From Bacteroidales bacterium (GTDB lineage: Bacteria; Bacteroidota; Bacteroidia; Bacteroidales; P3): 64,000 nt of DNA. Below, piece after piece: positions 1,102 to 48,943 of the stretch. The stretch's first letter is position 1. Every line of letters starts with the position of its first letter. The notes beneath the pieces are model-generated. The model searched no databases and was not told where the DNA came from. It was given only the letters and a program-made list of their open reading frames with translations. The stretch covers positions 399 to 64,398 of the forward strand of contig JAFSOU010000015.1 of assembly GCA_017443265.1 (NCBI GenBank), read 5' to 3'. The translations under genes and the position numbers were made by a program.

Positions 1102-1842
1102 TTAGTTGTCTTCTTTGTGTATGGTTTTTAATGGGATAAGGTATTTCACATATAAATCTCCATCATTTATTATGGGAGGATCTGTAGTCACAAAAGTCAA
1201 TAAATTGCGCCATCTTCTGTTCATTATTACAAGCAGAAATTCGTTTGTACCTTTGTATATATTGTAAAAAAAGCATTCTCTTACTCTTGTATCTTCCGAA
1301 CCATGTCTTCTGATTTTGATGACATCTTCCCAAGATGTGTCTATAGCAGGCATAGGGACATGGGAATAATTTTCCCAAGTGGGATAATCTAACATCGTAT
1401 AATCAAGTCTTTTTTTTATCTCATCGCTACATCTTGGATAGATATATTTCATAATGTTATTATATCGGTTCTCTATCAGAAAATAGTCTTTTTTACAGAC
1501 AAGAGATTTGATTTCATCAATTGACATTGAACGACTTATCGGAATATTGCAACTTCGGGTGTAAATTGTCCCGGTAGAATATTGAATTTTTGATTTAATT
1601 TTGATTAATCCATGACGTTTATTTGTCTTACGCGAATTCCAATACAAAAGATAGTGATAATAAGGGACTTCGTACCAGCGAGTGAATGAAGCCAAAGAGT
1701 CCAATTTAACAATTCCCAAGACAATACAGTCTATGTCGTAATTGCCTATGCTGTCAGTTTTTCTAAGCCTTTCGTTTGACTGGGCATGTATGCCATTATA
1801 TATCAATATCAAACAGATGATTACAATTATTTTTTTACCCAT
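1102..1842 (-). CDS. Candidate cognate immunity protein for the Rhs toxin tip (246 aa, N-terminal signal-peptide-like segment, no family recognised)
   Basis: The ORF starts 16 nt before the rhs stop (ATG at 1842..1840, rhs stop at 1827..1829). It is AT-rich like the toxin tip. The N-terminus MGKKIIVIICLILIYNGIHAQ is hydrophobic with an AxA-like end. The position immediately 3' of a polymorphic toxin tip fits an immunity gene. Confidence 0.6.
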   Translation of the reverse strand: MGKKIIVIICLILIYNGIHAQSNERLRKTDSIGNYDIDCIVLGIVKLDSLASFTRWYEVPYYHYLLYWNSRKTNKRHGLIKIKSKIQYSTGTIYTRSCNIPISRSMSIDEIKSLVCKKDYFLIENRYNNIMKYIYPRCSDEIKKRLDYTMLDYPTWENYSHVPMPAIDTSWEDVIKIRRHGSEDTRVRECFFYNIYKGTNEFLLVIMNRRWRNLLTFVTTDPPIINDGDLYVKYLIPLKTIHKEDN

Positions 1843-4800
1843 GGCCAGGTTATATTATTTTTTATTGTTCCGTTGTGTAATTTAGAAGGTATTTTTTTCA
1901 TTGGTTTATCTTTCCATGTTTTTTCAAAATCTTCAATTAATACTAGTTCTCCTCCATATGAAATGCCGGAAGAGATACGGGTTGGACATCCTGCTGTTGA
2001 AAAAATTAGAGCAATATAATCTTTTGAAATCCATTTTCCATCACCACCCGTTTCCATTAAACCATCCGTCCAGTGTTGAATACCAAGTGTATGCCCAATT
2101 TCATGTGCCATTGTTCTAATACCAGCAGTCGCTCTCAGACGAATTATATTACCATTTTCAGTTTCTCCTCTTGCTTTATCATCTCCAACATAAGTTCTCC
2201 CTTCATAATAATTAGCCATGCCCGACTTGTCATTTTCAAATGCTTTTTTTGCATCTTCTCGTACTTCTATTTGCAAATCAAACTTAATGGTATATTCTTG
2301 TTTTTCTTTACCTTCTCCAATAACATACTTATAACACCCAGATTCACTATTCCAAAAATGTATTCCTTTTTTTAAATCATCAGCATTCTCCTTCGATGTA
2401 TAGTATTTCGCTCTGAATGTTATAGTTTTATTTTCATCATCCACAACTGGTTCGAAATCTTCCCCCGTCGGATCCACGTACTTCACAGGATTATTCGCAC
2501 AATACGCATAAGGTGAGAAAGTTGGGTACCGCTCAAAGTGAGGATCACGTGAAATAAACACCGGCGGAGCCATGTATCGTGCCTCATAGTAGTACATTCC
2601 CGTCTCCTCATCCAACTCCTTGGCGTTAAAGGAGTACTTGGGCAACACAGAAGAACCAAAACTGCTATTATGCTCGTTAGTTATCTCTCCAAAGGGAGCG
2701 TACAAAAATCCCTGTTGTACTATAGCATTCTCATCCGTAACATAACAAGTGCTTCCCAAATGGTTGGGGTGGTAATAATAGACAGAGGAAGTGTTTGGTA
2801 TTAAGTTAGTTAAACCAATCTGTGGCAGTTCAAAAATCGGTTTCGGGTCTTCGTGGTTCTGCTCCTCGCCGGGTTCTAAAAATTCATATCCCGTTATTTC
2901 CACAATGTTTTTCCGTATTAAACTATCTTGCCACTCTTTACGGCTTTGCAGGTCGGGGTCGTTTACATTTATAGGCAGGTTCTGGTCGCCCAAGCGTGAG
3001 GCTATACGTTCCATTCCGTTGTAGTAGTGTTTTGTGTAGTAGCCGTTGCTATTAAAGTTCAAATAGCTGTTGGGGTAGAACATGGCATTATGTAGGTTAA
3101 AATTCACTGCCTCAAGTCTGCCGTTCACCCAGTTTGGAGACAAATCCATGCTGTACTTGTAGGTGCGAGTGGTGCCTCCGTCGTATCCGTACAGGGAGTA
3201 GAAAAGCCTGTCGTAGCTGTACAGCCGCAGGTTGCCGTCCGCGCCAAAGCGGTAGAGTTCTTCAGAGGGCTGTGCGTTGGGTATAGTTGTCTCCCTGCGC
3301 TGCAGGCTGCCGCCAATGCCGTACTGCTCGTTCACGTTGGTGCCGTCGGCATAGCTTATGTTGTTTGGGGCAAAGGTGGTCTGCCCTTCGTTAAGGCTGC
3401 CGTAACTGTAATAGCGTGTCTGGCTGGTGGTTGTGTTGCTGTTCAGGTCTGTCTGCTGCAGGCCGTACTCCTGTATCTTGCCCCAGTCGCCGTAGGTTAC
3501 GCTCAGGGCGTAGGTCTGCGGGTTGGCGGCGCTTACCAGCTGGTTTGTGCTGTCGTAGCTGAATGTCTCGGTAAAGGTCTGCCCCGCCAGCCACGGGTAG
3601 CTGCTCACGGCCTGCGTTATGTTGCCCGCGGGGTCGTAGCTGTAGGCTGTGTGGGAGAGCTGGCTGTTGCCGCTAAGGGTGGTTATGCCCGTCAGTCGGC
3701 AGTTCTGCGGGTGGTAGGCGTACTGCATCTTCAGGCCGTTGCCGTATTTGCGGCTTGTAACCGCACCAAACTTATCATAAAGTACACTATCTAAATAATT
3801 GTACATTGTTAATTGTACATTGTACATTCTAAACAACTGTCCGCCGCGGTCGTAGTCGTAGCTCACCGTCTCGCCGTCGGGGTAGGTTATGGAGGTGGTG
3901 CGTCCCCAGCTGTCGTATTCGTACTGCGTGGTAAGGGCAAGGTCGGTGGCAAGGAAAGGCAGCGCGTAGGTGCGGGTCTCGCTTTTCACCTCGCCCATGT
4001 TGCCGTAAGTGTAGTCCATGCGGCCGCTCTCGTCAAACACGGTCTCCACGCGTCCGGCGTAGTCGTAGCTATATACCGTGGGCAGTGTGCTGTCGCTGTA
4101 TATAACGCTGTCCAAGCGGTTGGCTATGTAGCGGCGGGTTATGGTCTTCTGCTTGGGCTGGCCGTTCTCCTGCCATTTATGCGTCTCGGTGGCAGGGTTC
4201 AGTCCGTCGTAGGTGTAGAGGGTCTCGAGGTGTCCCTCGCCGTAGCTTAACCGGCGGCCCAGCCAGTCGTACTCGTATGCGCGGCTCCAGTCGCCGTTGT
4301 TGGAGCTATATACCGCCAACAGGTCGCCCACGGGGCTGTAGTCGCAGTATAGCCACGGCTGTCCTGCGGCCTTGGCGGCCCATTGTCTGCCGTCGGCGTC
4401 CTTCAGCGTTGTGGAGGTGTGGCCGTTGGGGTCGGTAACGGCGGTGCGGAACAGCGTTTTGTTAAGGTGGCTGCCGCTGAAACCGTAGGCTGTGCGTGTG
4501 GTGCTGCCGTCGGGTGCTGTCTGCACCAGCGGTCTGTCGAGCACGTCGTAGGTCGCTGTGGACGGTGTTATCGCGTCCACGGCAAAGGCAAAGCGTGTGC
4601 TGTCGCGGTGCGCCTCGGTGGGGTGGTAGGTGGCCACGGCCCTGCCGAGGCCGTCAAATACGGTGTGCCCGCTCACCACTAATTTCTCCACGCCCTGCAC
4701 CTCGGCTTCAACGCGGGTCTGCACCGCGCGCCCGAGGCCGTCGCAGTAGGTGTGGGTCTTTATGGGGTTGGCGGGGTGCTGCGGGTCGTAGTTCTCCGTG

Positions 4801-7800
4801 GTGGCCGAGGACACGTTGCGTGCCGTCTCCTTGCCGCGGTAGGTGTAGCGTATGGTGTATGGCGCGCCGTCGGCTATCTCCTTGGGGCCGCGTATCGTCA
4901 GGGGGCGTCCCCAGCTGTCGAGGGTGTACTCCATGCTGTTGCCGGCGCGGTCGGTAACCGTCAGCGGCACGCCGTAGCGCAGGTCGTAGTTCTGCATCTG
5001 CGAGCTTGTGCCGAAAGTGTCCGTAACGCTCTCGGGATAGGTGTGGACGTCGCCGTCGTAGGTGTAATGCACGGCGGTGTTGGGGCCGCGCACATCGGTG
5101 ATATTGCCGTAAATGTCGAACACATAACGGGTTGCGAGGGTGTTCTGCCCGTCGTAGTCCATTATTGCGGTGTAGTGTCCCAATGTGTCTATATCTGTGG
5201 TTCTCAGTCGCATACCTTGTATTTCCACACGTTGTACTTTATTAACGATGTGGTTGCCGTTATATTGCGGGTGGTACGCAATTTCCACTTCCACCGTCGG
5301 CTGGTCGGTGCTGCCGTGGCGTTGCAGCACCACGTTTCCGTTGCCGAAATCGTAGTCTGTCTCCTGCCACTTCACTATGCCCGCCGTGGGCTGTCCTTCG
5401 TAATAGCATGTCTGCGAGCGTGTTATGTACGGAAATACCCTTTCGGCGTCGCCAATCACGTCAAGAGTTTCTTGTTGCAGGGTGTTGGCGGTCTGCACAT
5501 ACAGCAGTCCCCTCGAGTTTCGCAAAAAGCTGGCCACAGGTATGCCCTTGGTATGTATGTCGCTGTTGCTGAAATACTTGTCGGCGGTACTGTGCACGGT
5601 GTCGCCGTTCCAGCGGGTTTCCGTCACCTTGGCGAACCCGAGGAAGGCTTTCTCGTCGCGGTCGTAGTATCCGTGGCTGTAGCTGTAGGTGGTGCGCAGG
5701 GTGTCGCGCCCGTCGCCGGGCAGGCCGTCGCATATCTTCAGCTCTCTCGCCACCCAGCGGCGCTGGTGATATACCGTTGGGGCCGTAAGCTCGTAGTCGG
5801 CGTATATGGTGCCGCCCAAGGGGTTGGTGATGCTTTTCAGCAGACCGGTGCGTCCCATGCGCGAGTAGCGCACCGCTATCTCCGTGCCGCTCTCCGATTT
5901 CAGCAGGTCGGCCACGCCGTCGCCGTCCATGTCGCTTATCTGCAGTTTTTCGTTGCTCAGGCTCATGGAGGCCTTGAGGCCCGCGCTGCCGCCCGCTTTA
6001 AGTAGCCAGAACGACCATCCGCCTGTGCCTTCTATATTTGTCGAGGCGCTGGTGGAGGTGCCGTATTCCGCAAGGTTGGCCAGTATGTCGGGTGTGCGCC
6101 ATGCCGTCCATCCCGCGGCGAAGGCGCTGCCGGTGTTGCGGCGGTATTGTATCTCGCCGTCGGCGAAATTCCTCCTCACAAGGTCGGGCAGGCCGTCGCC
6201 GTCCATGTCCTGCAGGAACACCGTCTGCGTGTTGCTGGCCGTGGTTACGCCCACGCCTCCGCTTATGGCGTTGTTCCAAATGCTGAAAGTGCCCGAGGCG
6301 CTTGCCGAGAGGCTCAGCGAGGCGCTCACCGTATCCAACCCTGGCCATTGCTGCTGCGGCAGGAAACCGTAGCCGGTGCCGAGGCGCACGGTGCCGTCGG
6401 AGCATACTATGTCGGGCAGTCCGTCGCCGTTGAGGTCGGCAAGGGTTCTGTAGGTGCTGTCGGAGGCTTTGCTCGCGCCGGGGCTTAGCACAAAGTCCCT
6501 GCCACGTCCCGAGGAGGTGGTCTGTTTGGAGGTGTTCAAAAACTGTCCTGGCAGCACTACGGATCGGCTATTGCCCGTCCCGCTGTAGGGGTGCCCGCCG
6601 CCGAAGGGCCGGTACGCCGCGCTTTCGTAGCTTAATATATGGTAGGGCTTGGTGTAATATACTCCGCCGCCGTCTATTATGTCGGGACGGCCGTCGCCGT
6701 TGAGGTCCGTAACGTCGCGCTCCATCCATGTCCTGCCGTTGCCGGCGGAATACAGGGCCACGGTGTACGAGAAATTCTTGCTCTTGCTTATCTTGTCCAG
6801 TTTGCCTCCTCCGGCCGCCGTCGCGCGGCTGCCAGTGGAGCCTCCGGATGTGCGGTATGCGCGGTCGCCTCCGCCGGAGCTCTGGCCGCAGGGTATGGTG
6901 TTGCCCGCCACATTGGGCAGCAGGGTGTCCGTCATCACTCCGAGGCTTATCGCGGGTCCGCTCACGTAGGCGTTGGGGTATATGCCCTCCATGCGGCGGC
7001 GCTCGCCGTTGCCTGTCAGCGGCATGCAGCCGAACAGCGAGAGCACGTCCCCTACGGTGCCTGTCGTGGTGGTGTCCGACAGCTGTTTCAGGTAGTTGCT
7101 GTCCGTAAGGTTGCCGTAATAGGTGTTCAGGTCGGTTGCACTGCTAGGCATATTGCTTATACTGAACAACTTGGCAAGATTTATCTTGATACTGTCGTCG
7201 TGGCGGTACTGCACAGCGTGCCAGCCGCCGAAACCGTGGCCGAAGGGCAGCGAGGCCGTGCTGAGGTGGTATTTGGGGCTCCCGGCCCTGTAGCAGCGGT
7301 AGTTAGGCACTATGTGGTATTCCAGCGTCTTTATGGTGTCCACAACACCTCCCGCAAGGGTGTCGAAATACATCGTGGTCACCGTCCCGCCGCCGGCGGT
7401 GAGGGTCTTGTAATAAAGGTAGGGATGCCACTGGTTGTCTTTCCATACGGTGGAGGTGTCGCCTATGGCGTCGAAAATCAGGCTGTCTTCCTCGGCAAGG
7501 GTTATCACGGTGTCCCACACGGGGCTGCTGCCGGGAGTCAGTGTCCGCATCAGCGTGTTGTTGCGGCGTATCTCCAGCCGCACCGCGCTGGCGAAATCCG
7601 CCGCCGCGGTAGGCACTCGGAGCGCCGCCTGTCCGTTGCCGGGCGACACGAACCTGCCGCCGCCCATGGCGAAACCGGCCACCTCGCTGCGCTGCCCGTG
7701 GGTGGGGTAGCGATAGGGGTGGAACACCTGCACCCGAGGGTTCCAGTGCAGCTCGCGGCTCACATCACGGCCGCCTTTGCTGCGGGCGCGGAACAGCAGC

Positions 7801-10800
7801 ATGCCCTCGCCGTAATCGGGAGGCTCCGTGCCTACGCACTGCTCCAGAATCCTTTCTATGTACTCGCGGCTGAGGTAGCCGTTGTCGGGGTCTGTCAGGT
7901 CGCCGCGCCACAGTGTGTCGGTACCTGTAAGGGTGTCGATGGCTATGAGCACATGCACGGGCGAGCCTGTGCCCTTGGGCATATAGGTTTGGCCGTAGTA
8001 CTCCACGCTGAGCACCACGGTGTCGGGACGCTCCTCGGCATTGCGCACAAGGCCGCCCAGCCACGCCTTGGCGTCGATGGACAGTATGGTGGTGTGGGGG
8101 ATGTCCTCGCTCTCCCATATCCTTATTATGTCGTAATGGGGCGATTCCTCATCTATGGAGCTCTCCGCGTCGGGTATCTCGTCGAGGCCGAGGGGCTCCA
8201 CGCAGGGATATTTGGGGGTGGCGTCGGGGGTTACAGTGGGCGTGCCGCAGCCGCCGGGCATGGTCATGCTCGGGGCATTGTAGCGGCCTCCGAGACGGCT
8301 TATACGGCTGTCGTCCACTATGTCGGGCAGTCCGTCGCCGTCCATGTCGCTCAGATAGGTGCCTGTGGTGGTGGTGGTGGTGCTCCAGCTTACGCCGCCG
8401 CTGATGCCCGCCACATTCAGAACGGGACCGTGGCTGACGCTCACACGGCTGTCCCTCAGATAGTTGCCGGCACCGCTTATCGGCGACGGGGTAAGGAAGG
8501 CTCCGTTCTGCTGACGCTGCCAGTGCAGTCCGCCGTTAATCACCAAAAGGCGGTCGGGAAGGCCGTCGCCGTCCACGTCGCAAAGGGTGCTGCTACCGTA
8601 GCCAAGGCCGTAGTCGGCGCCAAGGCTGTACGACACGCTGTTTATCTTCGACGAGGTGTTGGCGCCCACACCGGCATACACTCCGGCGTCGCCGCCGAAA
8701 CTGAGGCTCGCATTGCCGCCTATCACCGTCCTCGTGCCCAGAACGCCCGACAACGAGCGCTCTATGGGCTTGCGCAGCTTGCCGTGGGCGCCGCCCAGAA
8801 GTCCGCCCAAACCGTAGTCGGCTGTGGTCATGGTGGTCGTGGCCGTGCCCAGAAGGCTGTCGGCATCTATCTCACGGTAGTATTCTATGTCGTGGTCGCG
8901 GCTGCCGTCGCTGTAGTCGCGCCCCCACTGGCGTATCTTCCTCAGCTGGGCCATGCCGTGGATGTCCTCGCCGTAGCAGAAACTGTAGCTCCGCACCATC
9001 TCGTCGCCGTAATAGACAAGGATGCGCCGCAGCTTGTCGCGCTGGCTCTGCAGATGGCCGCTGCGGGCCTCGTTGCGGTCGGTCTTGGGATACTCCCTGT
9101 CGCAGTCGCAGAGATCCATGCCGAGATAGAAATCAGGAACTTCCTTGCCGCCTATATATATGTTCTCTATGCTGTCGGCGTTTATGCTTCCGCTGCCTCC
9201 GCCGCACAGGTCGTTCTCTATTTCAAGGTGCAGGGTGTTGACCCCTGCCGTCTCGTTCTTTATCATGACGCCGGTGGGACCTTGGTCTGTTACCACAGGC
9301 TCGCATTCGTTCGGGAGGCCGGTGCTTTCAAAGTGGAACTCGTATCCCTTGAAGGGGGCGCACACATGTGCCGAATGCAGCTCGTTTATCGTTATGGTGG
9401 AGCCGCACTCCACCGTCGGCAGCTGCAGGCTGATGACGCCGGCGCCGTCGGTGGTCGGCGTGTGGGTGCCCGAGGCGGTAACTATCTCGAAGGGTATCCC
9501 CGCGAGGGGGCGGCCGGTGCCGGCCTCGGTCTTTATTATGTTTATCTGAACGGGGGAGCACTCGCATTTCACGCACGGGTGGTCCTTCAATATCAGCGTC
9601 AGACCGTTGCCTTGTATGTATGTCTTCTCCAACACGTCGGCAAAGTCTCCCTGGCTTATTATCTCTGCCGTGCACGGCTCGTAAGGCTCGTCCTTGTGCA
9701 TCCTGAACTGGAAATTGTGAAGACTGTCGCAGTACCCGTTTACAGACTGCTCGTTCACCGTTATCACCTCGTCGCAAAGGACTCCATTCAATATGGCGTT
9801 TATCTTTCCGTCAGCGCCGGTGATGTAGGTGTGGGTGCCGCCGCCGTATGTTACGCGGAACTCCACGCCGGGCATCGGCGTCTTGTCAGTGGCATCGTAT
9901 TTCTCTATGTTGAGCTCCACGTTGGGACACTCGCACTTGTCGCACTCGTCGTTATAAATCTCTATGATTATGTGGTGGTCGGTGGCCTGGATGCTCTTTA
10001 TCTTGCCGGGGTCGCTGCCGGTGTCCAGCACTTGGGGCGTTGTGCTGCCGCTCGGCATGCGAAGGGTTATTTTGTCCACCATGTTGCAGTATCCTGGTGC
10101 CGAAATTTCGCGTATCACAATGGTGTCGCCCTGCTGTATGCACACGTCCCACGACGCCTCTCCGGATGCGTCGGTGGTCGCGGGCCATACGCCGTGGACG
10201 CCACGCAGGTCCGACAGCTCGAAAACGGCTCCCGGGATGAGGTTCCCGCTCCGTTTGTCGTATTTCAACACCTCCACAAGCAAATCCATGCAGGTGCCGG
10301 GGGGCGACAGAGGGTCGCAAAGATTGGCGCTTACCGCAACGGATCGACCGGAGCGGCTCCTGCCGGACGCTCCTCGACCGCCGCCTTCGCCGCTGCCTCC
10401 GGACAAGTCTGTGCCGGTACCGCCAGCCGCATCGCGGCACGGGTTGGCTGTGCTCCCGAAAAAGACGTTGTACACTCCTCTCTCGCCTGTACGGCTGTTG
10501 CCGGTGTATTCTATGCTCTCCAGCCACAGCTGACGGCCCAGGTACACTCCGCCAGCGTCGTACTGACGGCGCTTGTTGTAGTGGTAACTTATGTAGTTGC
10601 CGTCGGCGTCCTCAACACGGCACAGCGGCCAGTGGCTTATGTTGCCGCCGGCGTCGCGCATAAGCACGGTGTCTGCCAGGGCATAACCGGCGTAGGTGCC
10701 GTAATAGTATTTGGTGCCGCCTTTGTCGGTTACTATCCAATAATAGTTCTGGGGGCTTGTGCCGTGGCGCTCTATCTTGTCGTAGCTGCTCTCCGTCCTG

Positions 10801-11762
10801 CGCCAGAAAACTTTTGCCCCTGCGGTATGGCGGGGCTCCCACTGCTGCTGGTAGCGCGGCGAGGGCAGCAGCTCCTCGCCGTCGATGACGTAGCTCTCGG
10901 TCTCGCTGGACATGTCGTAGCGCGGGACACCCCAACGGCTGTCCACGCTTATGGCTGATGTGCGCATGTCCCAGCCCACTCCCAGCAGTCCGTCGCCTCC
11001 GCCGCTGCTGTAGCCTATAGTAAGGTCGGGCTGCATGCCTCTGCGGCCTTGCGGCAATTCTATGGGGTATCTGGCGGTGAGTTCTCCCTGGCTGTTGCCC
11101 GCCGACACCTCGGCAAGCGTAACTCCCGCGGCGGGGTCGGCGGCCTTCAGCTCTTTCAGCCCCGTGGGGGTGAACGACTGTCCCTCGGGCATCTCGGGAT
11201 GGCTCACCACGGCGTTTATCATGTCGGTGAAATGGGTGGTGCGGGAATATACTATGCCCCCGGATACGGAATCGCGCTGCAGACGCTTCCACACTTTCAT
11301 GCCCTCGTCATAATAATAGGTATATATGTCCTTGTGGCTGTAGCCTTTGGGCAGCTTGGCCTCGTCGTAGCCTATCTGTATGCCGGCGGCTTTGCGGAAA
11401 TGCTCGCCGTGCGGCAGGAATCGGTACCCGGCGTGTCCGGACGTGACATTGACCATGCCCGCGCCCAGAGGAGGCAAATCAGCGTCTATGCCGCCGACAC
11501 TGAGCTTTGTGCCATGTCTAAGACTGCCACTCTCGCATACGAGCAGCGCATCGTCGAAACGCATCTCGAATGCCTCGCCTCCCGTGGCATAGTACTCCGA
11601 CGAAGTGGGCTTTCCCGATGCTTCATCTCCTTTTTTTATGTCTTCCGACGGCTTGCCGCCAAGATTAGTCGTCCCGAAACTGTAATAGCCATAGACGCTG
11701 GCACTGGCCACAAACGCCAGCGCCGCAACGATAAGGATTGTCCTTGACATACCGCTTCTCAT
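1827..11762 (-). CDS. Giant Rhs/YD-repeat polymorphic toxin (3311 aa) with a fused TcB-like (SpvB N-domain plus FG-GAP/VCBS propeller motifs) and TcC-like (YD shell) architecture and a C-terminal metallopeptidase-type tip
   Basis: N-terminal hydrophobic signal MRSGMSRTILIVAALAFVASASVYG. SpvB/TcaC-N-type motif YPIELPQGRRGMQPDLTIGYSSGGGDGLLGVGWDMRTSAISVDSRWGVPRYD. Six DxDGDGxxD motifs (DVDGDGLPDRL, DMDGDGLPDIV, DLNGDGRPDII, DLNGDGLPDIV, DMDGDGLPDLV, DMDGDGVADLL). Many YD repeats (YxYDxxGR/N-type). Rhs core end YYYHPNHLGSTCYVTDEN...YAPFGE...NPVKYVDPTG. Confidence 0.95.
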   Translation of the reverse strand: MRSGMSRTILIVAALAFVASASVYGYYSFGTTNLGGKPSEDIKKGDEASGKPTSSEYYATGGEAFEMRFDDALLVCESGSLRHGTKLSVGGIDADLPPLGAGMVNVTSGHAGYRFLPHGEHFRKAAGIQIGYDEAKLPKGYSHKDIYTYYYDEGMKVWKRLQRDSVSGGIVYSRTTHFTDMINAVVSHPEMPEGQSFTPTGLKELKAADPAAGVTLAEVSAGNSQGELTARYPIELPQGRRGMQPDLTIGYSSGGGDGLLGVGWDMRTSAISVDSRWGVPRYDMSSETESYVIDGEELLPSPRYQQQWEPRHTAGAKVFWRRTESSYDKIERHGTSPQNYYWIVTDKGGTKYYYGTYAGYALADTVLMRDAGGNISHWPLCRVEDADGNYISYHYNKRRQYDAGGVYLGRQLWLESIEYTGNSRTGERGVYNVFFGSTANPCRDAAGGTGTDLSGGSGEGGGRGASGRSRSGRSVAVSANLCDPLSPPGTCMDLLVEVLKYDKRSGNLIPGAVFELSDLRGVHGVWPATTDASGEASWDVCIQQGDTIVIREISAPGYCNMVDKITLRMPSGSTTPQVLDTGSDPGKIKSIQATDHHIIIEIYNDECDKCECPNVELNIEKYDATDKTPMPGVEFRVTYGGGTHTYITGADGKINAILNGVLCDEVITVNEQSVNGYCDSLHNFQFRMHKDEPYEPCTAEIISQGDFADVLEKTYIQGNGLTLILKDHPCVKCECSPVQINIIKTEAGTGRPLAGIPFEIVTASGTHTPTTDGAGVISLQLPTVECGSTITINELHSAHVCAPFKGYEFHFESTGLPNECEPVVTDQGPTGVMIKNETAGVNTLHLEIENDLCGGGSGSINADSIENIYIGGKEVPDFYLGMDLCDCDREYPKTDRNEARSGHLQSQRDKLRRILVYYGDEMVRSYSFCYGEDIHGMAQLRKIRQWGRDYSDGSRDHDIEYYREIDADSLLGTATTTMTTADYGLGGLLGGAHGKLRKPIERSLSGVLGTRTVIGGNASLSFGGDAGVYAGVGANTSSKINSVSYSLGADYGLGYGSSTLCDVDGDGLPDRLLVINGGLHWQRQQNGAFLTPSPISGAGNYLRDSRVSVSHGPVLNVAGISGGVSWSTTTTTTGTYLSDMDGDGLPDIVDDSRISRLGGRYNAPSMTMPGGCGTPTVTPDATPKYPCVEPLGLDEIPDAESSIDEESPHYDIIRIWESEDIPHTTILSIDAKAWLGGLVRNAEERPDTVVLSVEYYGQTYMPKGTGSPVHVLIAIDTLTGTDTLWRGDLTDPDNGYLSREYIERILEQCVGTEPPDYGEGMLLFRARSKGGRDVSRELHWNPRVQVFHPYRYPTHGQRSEVAGFAMGGGRFVSPGNGQAALRVPTAAADFASAVRLEIRRNNTLMRTLTPGSSPVWDTVITLAEEDSLIFDAIGDTSTVWKDNQWHPYLYYKTLTAGGGTVTTMYFDTLAGGVVDTIKTLEYHIVPNYRCYRAGSPKYHLSTASLPFGHGFGGWHAVQYRHDDSIKINLAKLFSISNMPSSATDLNTYYGNLTDSNYLKQLSDTTTTGTVGDVLSLFGCMPLTGNGERRRMEGIYPNAYVSGPAISLGVMTDTLLPNVAGNTIPCGQSSGGGDRAYRTSGGSTGSRATAAGGGKLDKISKSKNFSYTVALYSAGNGRTWMERDVTDLNGDGRPDIIDGGGVYYTKPYHILSYESAAYRPFGGGHPYSGTGNSRSVVLPGQFLNTSKQTTSSGRGRDFVLSPGASKASDSTYRTLADLNGDGLPDIVCSDGTVRLGTGYGFLPQQQWPGLDTVSASLSLSASASGTFSIWNNAISGGVGVTTASNTQTVFLQDMDGDGLPDLVRRNFADGEIQYRRNTGSAFAAGWTAWRTPDILANLAEYGTSTSASTNIEGTGGWSFWLLKAGGSAGLKASMSLSNEKLQISDMDGDGVADLLKSESGTEIAVRYSRMGRTGLLKSITNPLGGTIYADYELTAPTVYHQRRWVARELKICDGLPGDGRDTLRTTYSYSHGYYDRDEKAFLGFAKVTETRWNGDTVHSTADKYFSNSDIHTKGIPVASFLRNSRGLLYVQTANTLQQETLDVIGDAERVFPYITRSQTCYYEGQPTAGIVKWQETDYDFGNGNVVLQRHGSTDQPTVEVEIAYHPQYNGNHIVNKVQRVEIQGMRLRTTDIDTLGHYTAIMDYDGQNTLATRYVFDIYGNITDVRGPNTAVHYTYDGDVHTYPESVTDTFGTSSQMQNYDLRYGVPLTVTDRAGNSMEYTLDSWGRPLTIRGPKEIADGAPYTIRYTYRGKETARNVSSATTENYDPQHPANPIKTHTYCDGLGRAVQTRVEAEVQGVEKLVVSGHTVFDGLGRAVATYHPTEAHRDSTRFAFAVDAITPSTATYDVLDRPLVQTAPDGSTTRTAYGFSGSHLNKTLFRTAVTDPNGHTSTTLKDADGRQWAAKAAGQPWLYCDYSPVGDLLAVYSSNNGDWSRAYEYDWLGRRLSYGEGHLETLYTYDGLNPATETHKWQENGQPKQKTITRRYIANRLDSVIYSDSTLPTVYSYDYAGRVETVFDESGRMDYTYGNMGEVKSETRTYALPFLATDLALTTQYEYDSWGRTTSITYPDGETVSYDYDRGGQLFRMYNVQLTMYNYLDSVLYDKFGAVTSRKYGNGLKMQYAYHPQNCRLTGITTLSGNSQLSHTAYSYDPAGNITQAVSSYPWLAGQTFTETFSYDSTNQLVSAANPQTYALSVTYGDWGKIQEYGLQQTDLNSNTTTSQTRYYSYGSLNEGQTTFAPNNISYADGTNVNEQYGIGGSLQRRETTIPNAQPSEELYRFGADGNLRLYSYDRLFYSLYGYDGGTTRTYKYSMDLSPNWVNGRLEAVNFNLHNAMFYPNSYLNFNSNGYYTKHYYNGMERIASRLGDQNLPINVNDPDLQSRKEWQDSLIRKNIVEITGYEFLEPGEEQNHEDPKPIFELPQIGLTNLIPNTSSVYYYHPNHLGSTCYVTDENAIVQQGFLYAPFGEITNEHNSSFGSSVLPKYSFNAKELDEETGMYYYEARYMAPPVFISRDPHFERYPTFSPYAYCANNPVKYVDPTGEDFEPVVDDENKTITFRAKYYTSKENADDLKKGIHFWNSESGCYKYVIGEGKEKQEYTIKFDLQIEVREDAKKAFENDKSGMANYYEGRTYVGDDKARGETENGNIIRLRATAGIRTMAHEIGHTLGIQHWTDGLMETGGDGKWISKDYIALIFSTAGCPTRISSGISYGGELVLIEDFEKTWKDKPMKKIPSKLHNGTIKNNITWPWVKK
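1830..2462 (-). other. C-terminal toxin domain of the Rhs protein (211 aa after DPTG) carrying the metzincin-type zinc motif HEIGHTLGIQH (2073..2105)
   Basis: The reverse complement of 2073..2105 reads CAT GAA ATT GGG CAT ACA CTT GGT ATT CAA CAC, which translates to HEIGHTLGIQH (HExxHxxGxxH). It is followed by WTDGLMETGG, a possible Met-turn. GC content drops sharply exactly at the DPTG boundary. Confidence 0.75.
2463..3269 (-). repeat. rhs core 3' segment duplicated in the orphan module. Its partner is 241..1047.
   Basis: Encodes PSEELYRFGADGNLRLYSYDRLFY...NPVKYVDPTG, colinear with the orphan copy. Confidence 0.85.
9204..10292 (-). repeat. Three tandem ~120-aa Cna-B/SpaA-like (prealbumin-fold) repeats inserted in the N-terminal TcB-like region (aa 491-853)
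   Basis: R1 is CMDLLVEVLKYDKRSGNLIPGAVFELSD...ISAPGYC. R2 is CECPNVELNIEKYDATDKTPMPGVEFRVTYGGGTHTYITGADGKINA...SVNGYC. R3 is CECSPVQINIIKTEAGTGRPLAGIPFEIVTASGTHTPTTDGAGVISL. Each is bounded by Cys pairs. A Gly/Ser/Arg-rich linker (GGTGTDLSGGSGEGGGRGASGRSRSGRS) precedes them. Confidence 0.65.
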
Positions 11763-39724: not shown

Positions 39725-39855
39725 AGGTATGTAGTTGTCGTTAATTGTTTAGACTATTAAAAACTGAAAAACTCAAAAATTATTGTATAGACACTTCAAA
39801 AGGTATTTTTTTTACAAAAAATGAGTGATTTTTGCAAAAATCCAGCAATATCTAT

Positions 39856-39918
39856 CGTAACGCACTACTACAAACCCCGATACAAACGCCAATGTCTCCA
39901 TTACGCTTCTGAGCGTAA
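39856..39918 (+). repeat. 63-nt intergenic repeat, copy 1. It contains the hairpin ttacgct-tctg-agcgtaa.
   Basis: 53/63 identical to 42701..42763 in a gap-free hand alignment, in the same orientation. Confidence 0.8.
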
Positions 39919-42693: not shown

Positions 42694-42700
42694 TTTTTCT

Positions 42701-42763
42701 CGTAACCCACTATATCTAAACCCGTTACAAACGCCAACATCTCCATTACGCTTCGGAGCGTAA
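42701..42763 (+). repeat. 63-nt intergenic repeat, copy 2. It contains the hairpin ttacgct-tcgg-agcgtaa.
   Basis: Partner of 39856..39918. Confidence 0.8.
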
Positions 42764-45066: not shown

Positions 45067-46359
45067 ATGAGCAAAGTTGATGTATTGCTGGGCCTGCAAT
45101 GGGGCGACGAAGGAAAAGGAAAAGTGGTTGACGTGCTTACGCCTAACTACGATGTTGTTGCACGTTTTCAGGGCGGCCCCAACGCCGGACACACCCTCGA
45201 GTTCAACGGAATAAAACACGTGTTGCACATAATACCCTCGGGAGTTTTCCATCCCGACAAGAAAAACGTCATAGGCAACGGAGTTTTGATAGACCCCGTT
45301 ATCTTCGAACGCGAGATAGAAGGACTGTGGAAAAAAGAGGTGGATGCCACCAAAAACCTGTTCATCTCCAAAAAAGCGCACCTGATACTCCCCACCCACC
45401 GTCTGCTCGACGCCGCCAACGAACAAGCCAAAGGCAACGAAAAAATAGGCTCCACGCTGAAAGGCATAGGCCCCGCCTACACCGACAAGATTGCCCGTAC
45501 CGGTCTGCGCGTGGGCGACATCCTCGAATTCGACTTTCGCGAGAGATTCGAGCTGCAGAAATTCCAACACATACGCATTGCCGAAATGCTCGACTTCGAC
45601 ATCGACAGCTTCCGCATCGAAAATATGAGTCTGCAGGAATACGAGGACCGCTGGTTTGCCTCGCTCGACACCCTGCGCCATTTCAAACTGATAAACAGCG
45701 AGTATTTTCTCAACGAATGCCTTGCCAACGGTCTCAACGTGCTGGCCGAAGGCGCACAAGGCTCCATGCTCGACATCGATTTCGGCTCATATCCCTTTGT
45801 AACTTCTTCTACCACCGTTACCGCCGGCGTTTGCTCCGGACTGGGCGTGGCTCCTTCGAAAATCGACAAGGTGTTCGGCATCACCAAAGCCTACTGCACC
45901 CGCGTGGGCAGCGGCCCCTTCCCCACCGAATTGTTCGACAACGACGGCGACATTCTGCGCAACCGTGGCAACGAGTTCGGCTCCACCACAGGCCGTCCGC
46001 GCCGCTGCGGCTGGATAGACATACCCGCACTGAAATACGCATGCATGCTCAACGGCGTCACCGACCTTTTGGTAACCAAAATTGACGTTCTCAACGACTT
46101 CGAGACCATCAAGATGTGCAACAAATACATCATCGGTGGAAAAGAGACCGAAGAGATACCCTTCGAGTTCAACTCGGTGGAGATAAAACCCGTGCTGAAC
46201 GAATATCCCGGCTGGCAATGCGAGCTGCAAGGCACTCCCTCGTTCGACCAACTGCCGAAAAACGCCCTCAGCTACCTCGCCGAGATTGAGAAAGCCGTAC
46301 ACACCCCCGTCAAGGCCGTATCCATCAGTCCCGACCGCAAAGACGTACTTTTCAGATAG
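45067..46359 (+). CDS. purA: Adenylosuccinate synthase
   Basis: MSKVDVLLGLQWGDEGKGKVVD, GGPNAGHT, and GTTGRGIGP-type (IGSTLKGIGPAY) and TTGRPRRCGW motifs. Confidence 0.97.
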   Translation: MSKVDVLLGLQWGDEGKGKVVDVLTPNYDVVARFQGGPNAGHTLEFNGIKHVLHIIPSGVFHPDKKNVIGNGVLIDPVIFEREIEGLWKKEVDATKNLFISKKAHLILPTHRLLDAANEQAKGNEKIGSTLKGIGPAYTDKIARTGLRVGDILEFDFRERFELQKFQHIRIAEMLDFDIDSFRIENMSLQEYEDRWFASLDTLRHFKLINSEYFLNECLANGLNVLAEGAQGSMLDIDFGSYPFVTSSTTVTAGVCSGLGVAPSKIDKVFGITKAYCTRVGSGPFPTELFDNDGDILRNRGNEFGSTTGRPRRCGWIDIPALKYACMLNGVTDLLVTKIDVLNDFETIKMCNKYIIGGKETEEIPFEFNSVEIKPVLNEYPGWQCELQGTPSFDQLPKNALSYLAEIEKAVHTPVKAVSISPDRKDVLFR

Positions 46360-46368
46360 GCAATAAAA
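46231..46368 (+). repeat. 138-bp direct repeat, copy 1 (the authentic purA 3' end plus 9 nt past the stop)
   Basis: 136/138 identical to 47669..47806, and both differences are synonymous (TTC/TTT, CAA/CAG). Confidence 0.95.
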
Positions 46369-46421
46369 GGCACTGGCTTAATCCCTTAAATAAGTAACAA
46401 CACAAATAAAAACAAAAAAAT

Positions 46422-46940
46422 ATGAAAACAACAATTATTAATAAAGTCATGCCGCTGGTAGCGGTGGCTTTGGTGGGAGTGGCGATAGCCACCTCATGCA
46501 AAAAGGACAAAGAGGAGCAGAGAACGGATACACAAAACCCGCCCGACATCTCTCAAACAGATACGACGGTTGTTAACCCCAACCATCGCATTGTGCTATC
46601 CCTTACACCCGATTCCATACGCAGCTTGCTATTGGGCTCGTGGGAAGAAAAATATTACGGCCGGCACCACTATTATTCCGATGATGATGTGCGTGACACA
46701 TTGACATTTTGTGCAAATGACACTATTTTAGATAAAACAGGAGTTTTCACAAATTGTTCTTTCCAAGTTTTAAATAATAATACAATTTTTATTGCAAAAG
46801 ACTCAATCGTGTCGTCATCACACAATTTCACTTTGTCCATAGATACAACAACAAACGAATTGGAGATTATGTTCTACAATTTCATCAATTTGAGTATAAC
46901 TTGTGTAGTGAAAAATATACCATATATAAAATTAAGATAG
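46422..46940 (+). CDS. Small lipoprotein, possibly lipocalin-like. AT-rich.
   Basis: Lipobox ...LVAVALVGVAIATSCKK, and the LLGSWEE...DTLTF...DTILD pattern is shared with the next ORF. Confidence 0.7.
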   Translation: MKTTIINKVMPLVAVALVGVAIATSCKKDKEEQRTDTQNPPDISQTDTTVVNPNHRIVLSLTPDSIRSLLLGSWEEKYYGRHHYYSDDDVRDTLTFCANDTILDKTGVFTNCSFQVLNNNTIFIAKDSIVSSSHNFTLSIDTTTNELEIMFYNFINLSITCVVKNIPYIKLR

Positions 46941-46944
46941 AATC

Positions 46945-47421
46945 ATGAAAAAGACATTTTTTAGCAAAGCTTTACTGCTGGTAGCGGTGGCTTTGGTGGG
47001 AGTGGCAATGGCTACATCCTGCAAAAAGGAAATAGTTAGCACAGAAAATCATGGAAGTATAGAACCTCCTGACAATATTATTGATTCGTTACAAAATGAT
47101 TCGTTACAAAAACCATTCTTAGGTACGTGGGTTTCGCGCGGGATGTCTTCTTGGGGAGATCCCGTATGCTCCCCAGCTGATTTAAATTCGGACACTATCA
47201 CTTTTTTGCCCAACCACACAATGCTTGATAACTGCTCGGGATGGGGTAGCTTTAACGGATTTCCATATACAATAATTTCCGACACGACTGTCGAGTTTGG
47301 TACTTGGCAACTAAATGTAAAATTTCCCAATGTAGATACTCTTATTATTTATAATTGGAGACATTGCGAGGATATCGCATCATTTATCAAAAATGTCATA
47401 TTCACTAAAATAAACAATTGA
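46945..47421 (+). CDS. Small lipoprotein, a paralog of 46422..46940
   Basis: Lipobox ...LVAVALVGVAMATSCKK, then FLGTWVS...DTITFLPNHTMLD. The signal-peptide DNA (46977..47030) is 49/54 identical to 46454..46507. Confidence 0.7.
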   Translation: MKKTFFSKALLLVAVALVGVAMATSCKKEIVSTENHGSIEPPDNIIDSLQNDSLQKPFLGTWVSRGMSSWGDPVCSPADLNSDTITFLPNHTMLDNCSGWGSFNGFPYTIISDTTVEFGTWQLNVKFPNVDTLIIYNWRHCEDIASFIKNVIFTKINN

Positions 47422-47428
47422 TATCCAC

Positions 47429-47797
47429 ATGAAAAAGACAATCATTTTTTTTATAGGAATTATCACTTTTACAACATCCTTTTGTCAAGAAGTGTTTATT
47501 TACAATGAAAATGGAACACCATACTATTTCAATGAAAACCCAAATGTGAAATATGTGGAATTCAGCAACAATCTTTCAGATAATGATTTTGAAGCGGCTA
47601 AAACGGCATTGTTTCAATATGCCGACACAATTCAAAATTTGGAATACAGATTGTTTCGCCTTTATGTGGGCACTCCCTCGTTTGACCAGCTGCCGAAAAA
47701 CGCCCTCAGCTACCTCGCCGAGATTGAGAAAGCCGTACACACCCCCGTCAAGGCCGTATCCATCAGTCCCGACCGCAAAGACGTACTTTTCAGATAG
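47429..47797 (+). pseudogene. Chimeric ORF. The 5' ~80 codons come from a signal-peptide-bearing gene and are fused in frame to a duplicated purA 3' fragment.
   Basis: MKKTIIFFIGIITFTTSFCQEVF...LFRLYV / GTPSFDQLPKNALSYLAEIEKAVHTPVKAVSISPDRKDVLFR. The last 42 residues are identical to the PurA C-terminus. Confidence 0.8.
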
Positions 47798-47806
47798 GCA
47801 ATAAAA
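47669..47806 (+). repeat. 138-bp direct repeat, copy 2 (duplicated purA 3' end)
   Basis: See 46231..46368. Confidence 0.95.
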
Positions 47807-47884
47807 AACATTTTTTAGCGTTTAAACGTAAAATATAGGACAAAAAAGTTACCAAATAAAAACAAATTCAAAAAACCACATACA

Positions 47885-48943
47885 ATGAAAAGATTAGTTT
47901 TGGCCATATTGGCAATGATAACAATAAGTGCGGGCCTCAACGCCCAAACCAAGGTAAAAGAGTCGCAGGTGCCGCGCGCCGTGCTTCTGGCTATGGAAAA
48001 CACCTACACCAGCTACTCCGTGAAAGCCTGGTTCGAGCAGCCCGGACAGTACGTGGCCGACTTCAGCACCGAAGGACAGAACGGCAAAGCCTATTTCACC
48101 GACGACGGCGAATGGCAATACAGCGCCTTTGTCGTGGACATCTCGGAATGCCCCACAATAATGAACACCTATTTTGTGGACAACTACCCGGGATTCAAAA
48201 TCCGTTCCACCGAATACATCGAGGAGATGAGCGGCGACAACTACTACCGCATGATAATCACCCGCAAGGGCATCGGCTCCGACGATTTCGAGCTGATTTT
48301 CGACACCCGCGGAAAACTCACCAAGACCAACGCCCCCGACCCAGAGGTGGTGCGCCGCGACTTTATCGCCCGCAACAACCCCGAAGCCGACCTCTCGGAA
48401 CGTGAAGGACCACAACCGCCGGAGAAAGCCGACAAAACTGCTCGTAAGAAAAGACAACTCGAAATCGACGCCGAAATCGAGACAGTAACCCCTCCCGACG
48501 CTGTGAAGAAAAACTTCGAGAAACGCTACCCCACCACCCGTATCAAAGAGGGTCCCGAATGGGTTATGCGCGACGGCGAATACTATGTGGCATACTTCAC
48601 CAACAACCAAAGAGTGGATTTCGACGCTGTGCTGGCCGAATCAGGCACCATGATAATGGTGGGCACCAAACTGGCTCCCGAACGCTACCCGCGTCCCATC
48701 CAGAAATACCTTGCCGAAAAGCTGAAAGGCGAAAAATACGACATCGAAAAGATGGTGCGCTACGACTACGACTCCAAATACCGCAACGAAGATGGCAAAA
48801 AACCGAAACAATACTTCTATGTGGTTATCAGCCAGAAGGTTAAAGGTAAGAAAGGCAAAAAATTCACCCGTATGACTTTCGACAACGTGGGCAAATTCAC
48901 CGGCCTGCTGGCCAACCCCCTCGACGAAAAAGATATAAGATAA
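47885..48943 (+). CDS. Secreted PepSY-like (BLIP-like) repeat protein
   Basis: Signal MKRLVLAILAMITISAGLNAQ. There are two halves, each with a ...P..V...F...YP... and ...GEWQYSAF / GEYYVAYF pattern, separated by a charged linker. The family assignment is from memory. Confidence 0.6.
   Translation: MKRLVLAILAMITISAGLNAQTKVKESQVPRAVLLAMENTYTSYSVKAWFEQPGQYVADFSTEGQNGKAYFTDDGEWQYSAFVVDISECPTIMNTYFVDNYPGFKIRSTEYIEEMSGDNYYRMIITRKGIGSDDFELIFDTRGKLTKTNAPDPEVVRRDFIARNNPEADLSEREGPQPPEKADKTARKKRQLEIDAEIETVTPPDAVKKNFEKRYPTTRIKEGPEWVMRDGEYYVAYFTNNQRVDFDAVLAESGTMIMVGTKLAPERYPRPIQKYLAEKLKGEKYDIEKMVRYDYDSKYRNEDGKKPKQYFYVVISQKVKGKKGKKFTRMTFDNVGKFTGLLANPLDEKDIR

Follow-up and report, generated by a model that had tools for sequence, protein, structure and literature searches.

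A duplicated purA 3′ end and a strain-variable lipoprotein insert in an uncultured gut Bacteroidales bacterium

Displaced 3′ gene ends are known from rhs loci and from the effector-immunity arrays of the Vibrio cholerae type VI secretion system (T6SS). In the model proposed for these loci (PMC5361080), homology in a conserved upstream gene anchors the incoming DNA, whose other end is joined illegitimately; the resident 3′ end is shifted downstream and persists there as an orphan fragment, close strains differ in their alleles, and recombinases are not involved. C-terminal displacement at rhs loci is credited there to Jackson et al. (2009). This paper describes a comparable arrangement at the site between purA, which encodes adenylosuccinate synthetase, and a gene for a PepSY-like secreted protein in an uncultured gut Bacteroidales bacterium. 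The site lies in a 64-kb stretch of DNA (the window, meaning the whole stretch that was analyzed), in which the end of purA occurs twice, on either side of an AT-rich insert that carries lipoprotein genes. The displacement model proposed for the T6SS and rhs loci (PMC5361080) is also the one tentatively favored here. The two situations differ in that the anchor at this locus is the housekeeping gene purA, whereas the anchor in the published model is a polymorphic toxin gene, and in that the displaced end here is a near-identical duplicate without evident function, left by an event that we infer.

A second group of described systems offers a different comparison. Elements of the ICESt1/ICESt3 family at fda reportedly include cis-mobilizable and integrative mobilizable elements that reside at the 3′ ends of protein genes. 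Elements of this type have short conserved attachment (att) cores, recombinase-binding arms, and known partner elements. The purA locus resembles them in that a housekeeping 3′ end lies in direct repeats, in lacking an integrase of its own, and in being variably present among strains; it differs in that no partner, conserved right arm, or recombinase relative was found for the window insert.

Anatomy and alleles of the purA-to-PepSY site

A repeat search of the window found a direct repeat of 138 nt with 99% identity (46231–46368 and 47669–47806), and the 64 kb contain no other long near-identical repeat. Each copy covers 42 codons and the stop at the end of purA (129 nt) as well as the 9 nt past the stop, and the similarity ends abruptly at either side. 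The first copy (R1) lies at the end of an intact purA of 430 aa (45067–46359; Pfam PF00709); the second (R2) is the displaced end. Comparison base by base bears out the preliminary description of this locus, which was made from the sequence alone: the copies differ at two positions (46245 C against 47683 T, and 46251 A against 47689 G), both synonymous in the purA frame. The insert between them (46369–47668; 1300 bp) has a GC content of 36.5%, compared with 53.7% for purA and 50.3% for the window, and its GC at third codon positions (GC3) is 0.31–0.42 compared with 0.69 for purA.

Four states of the site were distinguished among strains whose flanks are about 96.5–99% identical (labels of the form L083 denote metagenome contigs or loci, from related strains and from other organisms). 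In the empty state (L094, L099) the insert is missing, and purA runs through exactly one repeat copy into the flank that follows R2 and on to the PepSY gene. The expectation in the preliminary description that relatives would have an empty site is thereby borne out, and the insert is an insertion polymorphism. The window-type state is found in L081–L089. A third state (L092, L095–L097) carries a different AT-rich insert of 33% GC, with genes for a 150-aa lipoprotein and a 249-aa ORF (open reading frame). This alternative insert starts at the same point as the window insert, after GCAATAAAA, and its leader and signal-peptide start are about 82% identical to those of the window. At its right end, the repeated part of the purA stop region (ATAGACAATAAA) is only about 12 nt long, some of which may be owed to low complexity rich in A, and the next 33 or so intergenic nucleotides differ. 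The right-hand ATAGACAATAAA copy has the A of the empty allele, and the left purA end has G. The two inserts thus have a common left junction and leader and unrelated right ends. In the fourth state (L090; 96.75% identity) the leader is present and the first gene diverges. The possibility that all relatives carry the identical arrangement, which had been named as grounds for abandoning the integration reading, is accordingly contradicted by the empty, alternative-insert, and variant alleles. These relatives come from metagenomes; in a scan of a genome collection with PurA, the best match among the matches listed was 60% identical, and no close relatives appeared.

The window allele combines features of two of these classes. 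Empty strains have one repeat copy followed by the flank of R2, and R2 with its flank is therefore collinear with the empty allele. The sequence after R1 matches the beginning of the L092 insert, and also L090, with about 82% identity, and R1 with the leader is therefore collinear with the filled alleles. The left part of the window allele accordingly belongs with the filled class (L092, L090) and the right part with the empty class (L094, L099), with a non-homologous joint between them. Later homologous exchange is visible in L083, a strain 98.8% identical to the window that has the same structure and its own variants. Aligned over window positions 45714–47806 (L083 1–2092), it has 12 mismatches up to 46137, many of them in common with the empty-site L094, its purA body being of the empty-strain type to about that point, and none from 46138 to 46372, a stretch that includes the whole of R1; its insert is 0.9% diverged. 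The mosaic purA of L083 indicates a homologous-recombination breakpoint about 65–95 nt upstream of the repeat. R1 itself differs from the empty-site alleles at 5 positions.

All features of the locus lie on the plus strand, and the gaps between the ORFs of the insert are only 4–7 nt. A leader follows R1 (46369–46421; about 82% identical, with the signal-peptide start, to the L092 insert, L090, and L083), and a leader and signal-peptide module (46411–46512) recurs with 77% identity at 46934–47035. The first gene, lipo1 (46422–46940), encodes a 172-aa lipoprotein with the lipobox ATSC, and the second, lipo2 (46945–47421), a 158-aa lipoprotein predicted to form an eight-stranded beta-barrel. Their products are 34% identical over 128 aa (E 1e-8) and have a common lipobox, which makes them paralogs, as first described. 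The third ORF (47429–47797; 122 aa) is also chimeric as first described, with 80 codons of a signal-peptide ORF (ORF3N; 47429–47668) that run in frame into the 42 codons of the PurA end within R2, the last 42 residues being the PurA C-terminus. At the putative illegitimate junction (47667–47670), ORF3 codon 80 meets purA codon 388/389, and TATGTG is followed by GGCACT. R2 is continuous with an intergenic flank of the empty-allele type (47807–47884), in which about 33 nt differ from the alternative insert allele, and then with the PepSY-like gene (47885–48943), the constant right neighbor across alleles.

The signs of a recombinase-driven element were sought without success. Pfam identified no integrase, transposase, or resolvase among the ORFs of the window apart from a 3311-aa ORF (1827–11762) that was left out of that search, and within this scope the earlier statement that no integrase or transposase lies in the window stands. 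No recombinase was found in any of the four site alleles and no tRNA gene near the locus. The ends of the insert have no inverted repeats or hairpins and fold into no structure beyond that of shuffled controls. Neither the insert nor its conserved modules had a match in plasmid, phage, or viral collections. The neighboring genes are housekeeping genes, encoding BamA, UppS, acetate kinase, a SurA-like protein, SodB, RpoB and RpoC (rpoBC), and ribosomal proteins.

The six nucleotides GGCACT at the start of the insert (46369–46374) are the same as the first 6 nt of the repeat (46231–46236 and 47669–47674); other filled strains have GGCAAT there. The identity is microhomology or possibly a coincidence. 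Template-switch and integration models were built on it, and none gave the observed order without extra steps.

Origin of the duplicated gene end

The purA-to-PepSY site is best read as a strain-variable islet for AT-rich, mosaic genes for small lipoproteins. Within it, we tentatively attribute the window allele to a one-off illegitimate recombination anchored by homology, which would have left a scar of the 3′-end displacement type; we favor this origin, while placing it just short of probable. The allele would be a recombinant of filled-type and empty-type chromosomes, with purA, R1, the leader, lipo1, lipo2, and ORF3N coming from a chromosome that was already filled after purA, and R2, the intergenic flank, and the PepSY gene from an empty-type chromosome. 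The left end of the exchange would have been ordinary homologous recombination inside purA, and the right end a single illegitimate crossover that joined codon 80 of the incoming ORF3 to codon 388/389 of the recipient purA. The recipient purA end would thereby have been shifted downstream as R2, and the truncated ORF3 would now read into it. A dedicated recombinase would not be required. The allele would then have spread among strains through homologous recombination in its flanks, and the 138-nt repeats would make the insert deletable or amplifiable by RecA. The alternative allele would follow the same scheme with the same polarity, its joint lying 12 nt before the end of the repeat.

In addition to the collinearity of the two parts with different allele classes, several observations support this origin. 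In the alternative allele, the ATAGACAATAAA remnant carries the A of the empty type and the purA end carries G. No allele contains a recombinase, and the insert lacks terminal hairpins and inverted repeats. The mosaic lipoprotein family has its breakpoints at short conserved modules, and it occupies other intergenic sites without any flanking duplication. The empty, filled, and alternative alleles make the site a clean natural example of a housekeeping-gene end that is duplicated when accessory genes slot in, and such gene-end duplications should not be taken for att sites by default. The scar is a further case of a known type; the gene family and the coincident end of ORF3, described below, are the parts worth following.

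Among 5.8 billion proteins, ORF3N has 3 homologs, a number that a profile search did not raise. A full-length homolog, which the preliminary description had called for, was not found, none of the 3 being demonstrably complete, and JGI metagenomes yielded no ORF3N-like part either to an alignment scan or, subsequently, to a DNA pattern with 35 specified bases. In L101–L103, the DNA is 95% identical to the window up to 47629 and then continues into other AT-rich ORFs. In L100 and L104, the match to ORF3N ends within about 3 nt of the position at which the window switches to purA; the DNA past that junction is GC-rich, and its opposite strand encodes residues 26–81 of an IS982-family (IS1187-like) transposase (63% identity over 56 aa, E 9e-21, by pairwise tblastn). 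From a point about 50 nt ahead of the junction, L100 and L104 have the same sequence, and they therefore count as one event. The purA junction and the transposase junction are consequently two independent joints at the same position of ORF3, within about 3 nt.

Three minor observations concern the same ORF. The transposase fragment (L100 650–787; L104 315–482) is the 5′ part of the gene in antisense, with the gene cut internally, and both contigs come from samples other than that of the window. The called ORF3-like proteins of these contigs (P0002, P0003) end in a nonsense tail, NTERFGRWRQGDNFKV. Derivation of ORF3N from a truncated subtilase was considered and rejected; the S8 subtilase gene of L114 shares only its first 18 nt with ORF3.

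Several points weigh against an origin by illegitimate joining and homologous exchange. No donor allele with a full-length ORF3 was found in the databases searched, and the truncation of ORF3 and microhomology at the joint therefore cannot be shown. R1 and R2 differ from each other at 1–2 positions and each of them from the sampled empty alleles at 5; being closer to each other than to those alleles, they would need an unsampled recipient or gene conversion. The contig L084 joins ORF3N, the repeat, and lipo1 in the order expected of a circle or a tandem copy. Neither natural transformation nor chromosomal transfer is known from this uncultured lineage. Finally, the two independent junctions at one position of ORF3, for which random joints would give a chance of roughly 2–5%, are left unexplained.

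The strongest alternative is insertion-duplication of the Campbell type. Here a non-replicating circle of 1438 bp, containing one copy of the purA end and the insert, would have entered an empty site by a single crossover in the 138-nt homology; the circle could have arisen by illegitimate circularization of a fragment of a filled allele or by RecA excision from a window-like allele. We consider this unlikely, though it would give the same product as the exchange. The filled allele does equal the empty site with exactly one repeat-insert unit added, and the variant bases that distinguish copy 2 lie at the 5′ end of the repeat, as fits a crossover further downstream. L084 (1–1090), from the sister sample SAMN15829940, reads from ORF3N into a repeat with the copy-2 variants and then into the leader, lipo1, and the start of lipo2, which is the junction expected of a circle and the kind of circular or excised junction that the preliminary description had anticipated. 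The junction is present, but only in this single contig of 1090 bp, both ends of which lie inside lipo2, and it can be explained equally well as a circle, as a tandem copy generated by RecA, or as an effect of low coverage that collapsed the 118-nt identical stretch. Insertion of a circle also needs the extra step of circle formation via the same illegitimate joint, and it leaves the 12-nt duplicate of the alternative allele unexplained. The locus resembles known Campbell integration in its homology-insert-homology product, its RecA reversibility, and the one copy at the empty site; it differs in that no vector or replicon was found and in that a 1.4-kb circle itself requires an illegitimate joint.

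Another alternative treats the insert as a small cassette mobilized in trans by a recombinase encoded elsewhere, with the purA stop region as its target and the repeats as attL and attR. It would account for direct repeats flanking an insert of foreign base composition, for the exact empty site, for two inserts with one left junction after GCAATAAAA and the purA stop region repeated at the right of both, for the coincidence of the right end with a second, independent junction elsewhere, and for a possible circle junction in L084. However, neither the window nor any allele contains a recombinase, the right arms of the two inserts beside the supposed core are unrelated, and no inverted core repeats or hairpins are present. 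Related islets elsewhere lack flanking repeats, the insert is untraced in plasmid, phage, and viral collections, and common descent explains the shared left junction as well. The second junction meets an internal, antisense fragment of a transposase gene rather than a purA-like target, and the 138-nt identity far exceeds the 12 nt common to both alleles. We therefore regard such a cassette as quite improbable.

A related proposal sees in the AT-rich block a mobile but non-autonomous cassette that would have its defined right terminus at ORF3 codon 80 and would be moved in trans by a putative enzyme. One and the same end, to within about 3 nt, lies against purA codon 389 in the window and against an internal, antisense point of a transposase gene of the IS982 family in another organism; a contig with a circle or tandem junction exists; and several rumen Bacteroidales carry related lipoprotein and peptidase modules at unrelated intergenic sites, with no recombinase linked to them. 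The proposal seems about as improbable as the preceding one. If a trans-moved cassette with a defined terminus were real, Bacteroidota would have a new way of moving small cassettes for surface proteins or inhibitors, one that could create long target duplications.

It is very unlikely that the insert is the internally deleted remnant of a larger integrative element, such as an integrative conjugative element or a prophage, at the purA 3′ end. Repeats resembling att sites, AT-rich cargo, and a third ORF that looks cut off are all in keeping with such a remnant. The insert does have flanking direct repeats that are single at empty sites, as an integrative element would; conserved arms on both sides of a short core are absent, only the left leader being shared. 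No larger version occurs in at least 20 contigs of related strains that cover the site, and phage, plasmid, and viral collections hold no match. The genes of the insert are members of a chromosomal lipoprotein family whose arrays and islets contain no mobile-element genes. A fuller insert with a tyrosine or serine recombinase, which the preliminary description had suggested looking for, did not come to light: the L092-type allele, whose sequence is almost complete between the final 77 nt of purA and the PepSY-like gene, has two small ORFs only. The original reading as an integration scar thus holds as far as an insertion polymorphism without a recombinase is concerned, and is not supported with respect to a recombinase-driven element, since the unrelated right ends of the two inserts are unlike those expected of related site-specific elements that share a common attP. 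Because of these right ends, the lack of any recombinase-bearing version, and the other sites without duplication, R2 is better interpreted as a gene end displaced by an illegitimate join and homologous exchange than as the att site first proposed.

Both junctions were recovered in independent assemblies from at least six samples in three projects by exact-protein look-ups (the exact PurA protein in seven contigs and the exact 122-aa chimera in six), and in a MEGAHIT assembly at k=141, a k greater than the repeat length, one contig spans purA, R1, and the insert and another spans the insert, R2, and the PepSY gene. It is extremely improbable that the duplication is an artefact of assembly, which the preliminary description had raised, or of binning, although the source is metagenomic and several contigs break within or at the end of copy 2, because both junctions are reproduced across distinct samples and assemblers, including the k=141 contigs that span each copy, R1 and R2 carry distinct linked variants, and the 98.8% identical strain shares the structure and has its own variants.

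Other kinds of mobile DNA were rejected. An integron gene cassette does not fit the 4–7 nt gaps between ORFs, the absence of a structured, attC-like end, or the absence of an integrase. Ends of the IS200/IS605 type are rejected, the ends of the insert folding no better than shuffled controls. A transposon or insertion sequence is at odds with a duplication of 138 nt and with the lack of terminal inverted repeats and a transposase. No reverse transcriptase of a diversity-generating retroelement is present in the window, and the differences between the repeats are only C/T and A/G.

The lipoprotein family of the insert

Neither lipo1, lipo2, nor ORF3N belongs to a Pfam or NCBIfam family, weak NCBIfam matches of the insert proteins being far below cut-off. 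The lipo1/lipo2 family is sparse, with 15–20 clusters detected; lipo1 has 15 representatives at E<1e-3 among 1.8 billion proteins. A lipobox signal of the form MKK...LVGVAMATSCKK is found in lipo1, lipo2, and every homolog. Members have a common leader and signal-peptide module of about 100–190 nt with 76–92% nucleotide identity, followed by unrelated mature parts, and lipoprotein genes of other loci and other species begin with this module as well. The purA site thus exposes a previously undescribed family of AT-rich lipoprotein genes in ruminant-gut Bacteroidales that shuffles between loci and strains.

A conserved 5′ leader and signal-peptide module is reportedly also a feature of the variable lipoprotein families Vlp and Vsp of Mycoplasma. 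The likeness extends to a near-identical upstream region and lipoprotein signal, unrelated mature parts, and tandem arrays; the differences are that Mycoplasma is in another phylum and that no phase-variation switch was seen here. One tandem array (L123 5600–9100; also L124 and L125) comprises five lipoprotein genes (240, 160, 166, 223, and 128 aa), each beginning with a leader and signal-peptide module of 102–188 nt, at 37% GC compared with 50% in the flanks. A perfect palindromic element of 31 nt (CGTCGTTGCGGATATGTTATCCGCAACGGAA) occurs twice between the genes of this array.

Elsewhere, members of the family lie in small intergenic islets whose content varies. Beside tsaE, L114 (1697–3806) has a lipo2 homolog followed by a gene for an S8 subtilase, and L121 has at the same site lipo2 followed by a lipo1-like gene. 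Between genes for an FGE-sulfatase and a BKACE protein, L106 (6001–7190) has a lipo2-like gene and a 232-aa ORF, and L117 (8001–11215) has a truncated lipo2 and a gene for a 982-aa S8 subtilase. L106 and L117 come from related genomes of a species other than that of the window, and they show one intergenic site with two different islets. In L114 and L117–L120 the lipo2 homologs are directly upstream of an S8 subtilase gene, which is AT-rich in L114 and L117. No flanking direct repeats or target duplications were found at the family's other intergenic sites.

The pairing with peptidases recalls the potempins, which are outer-membrane lipoproteins that inhibit secreted peptidases and whose genes stand immediately upstream of those of the peptidases that they block (PMC9890683). 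An AlphaFold2 model of lipo2 has about eight beta strands (mean pLDDT 66, core about 80). Its top matches in the PDB are 8ehc and 8ehd, both potempin E (E about 1e-3; target-normalized TM-score 0.61–0.66), and the next are lipocalin-like lipoproteins. Like the potempins of the KLIKK-peptidase system of Tannerella forsythia (PMC9890683, PMC4404884), of which PotE, PotB1, and PotB2 are eight-stranded up-and-down beta-barrels, these proteins are small lipoproteins encoded by variable gene arrays in Bacteroidales, and in the relatives L114 and L117 a peptidase gene is directly downstream. They differ in that lipo2 has no detectable sequence similarity to potempins and in that no peptidase gene follows the lipo genes or lies anywhere within the window insert.

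The family, often paired with an S8 peptidase, may therefore be called potempin-like by predicted fold. Given the adjacency of S8 subtilases in relatives, lipo1 and lipo2 can plausibly be read as orphan potempin-like inhibitors, on the basis of a model of moderate quality and of gene context. Should lipo1 and lipo2 indeed inhibit peptidases as orphans, the locus would amount to a defense-type islet comparable to orphan immunity genes.

Other repeats in the window

Two further sets of repeats were noted in the window. The first is a 64-nt intergenic direct repeat (39855–39918 and 42700–42763; 84% identity) that contains a short hairpin (ATTACGCTTC...GAAGCGTAAT). It has no match in Rfam and is unrelated to the purA-end duplication, and it flanks a block composed of an AAA-ATPase gene, a 346-aa membrane ORF (GC3 0.41), and crcB. 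The second set lies at the start of the window, where an AT-rich ORF of 246 aa on the minus strand (1102–1842; GC3 0.33; no Pfam family) is situated between three colinear, diverged repeats (207–964 and 2429–3186; 70–82% identity) with a spacing of 2222 nt. These repeats tie the start of the window to the 3′ part of the 3311-aa ORF, which is on the minus strand.

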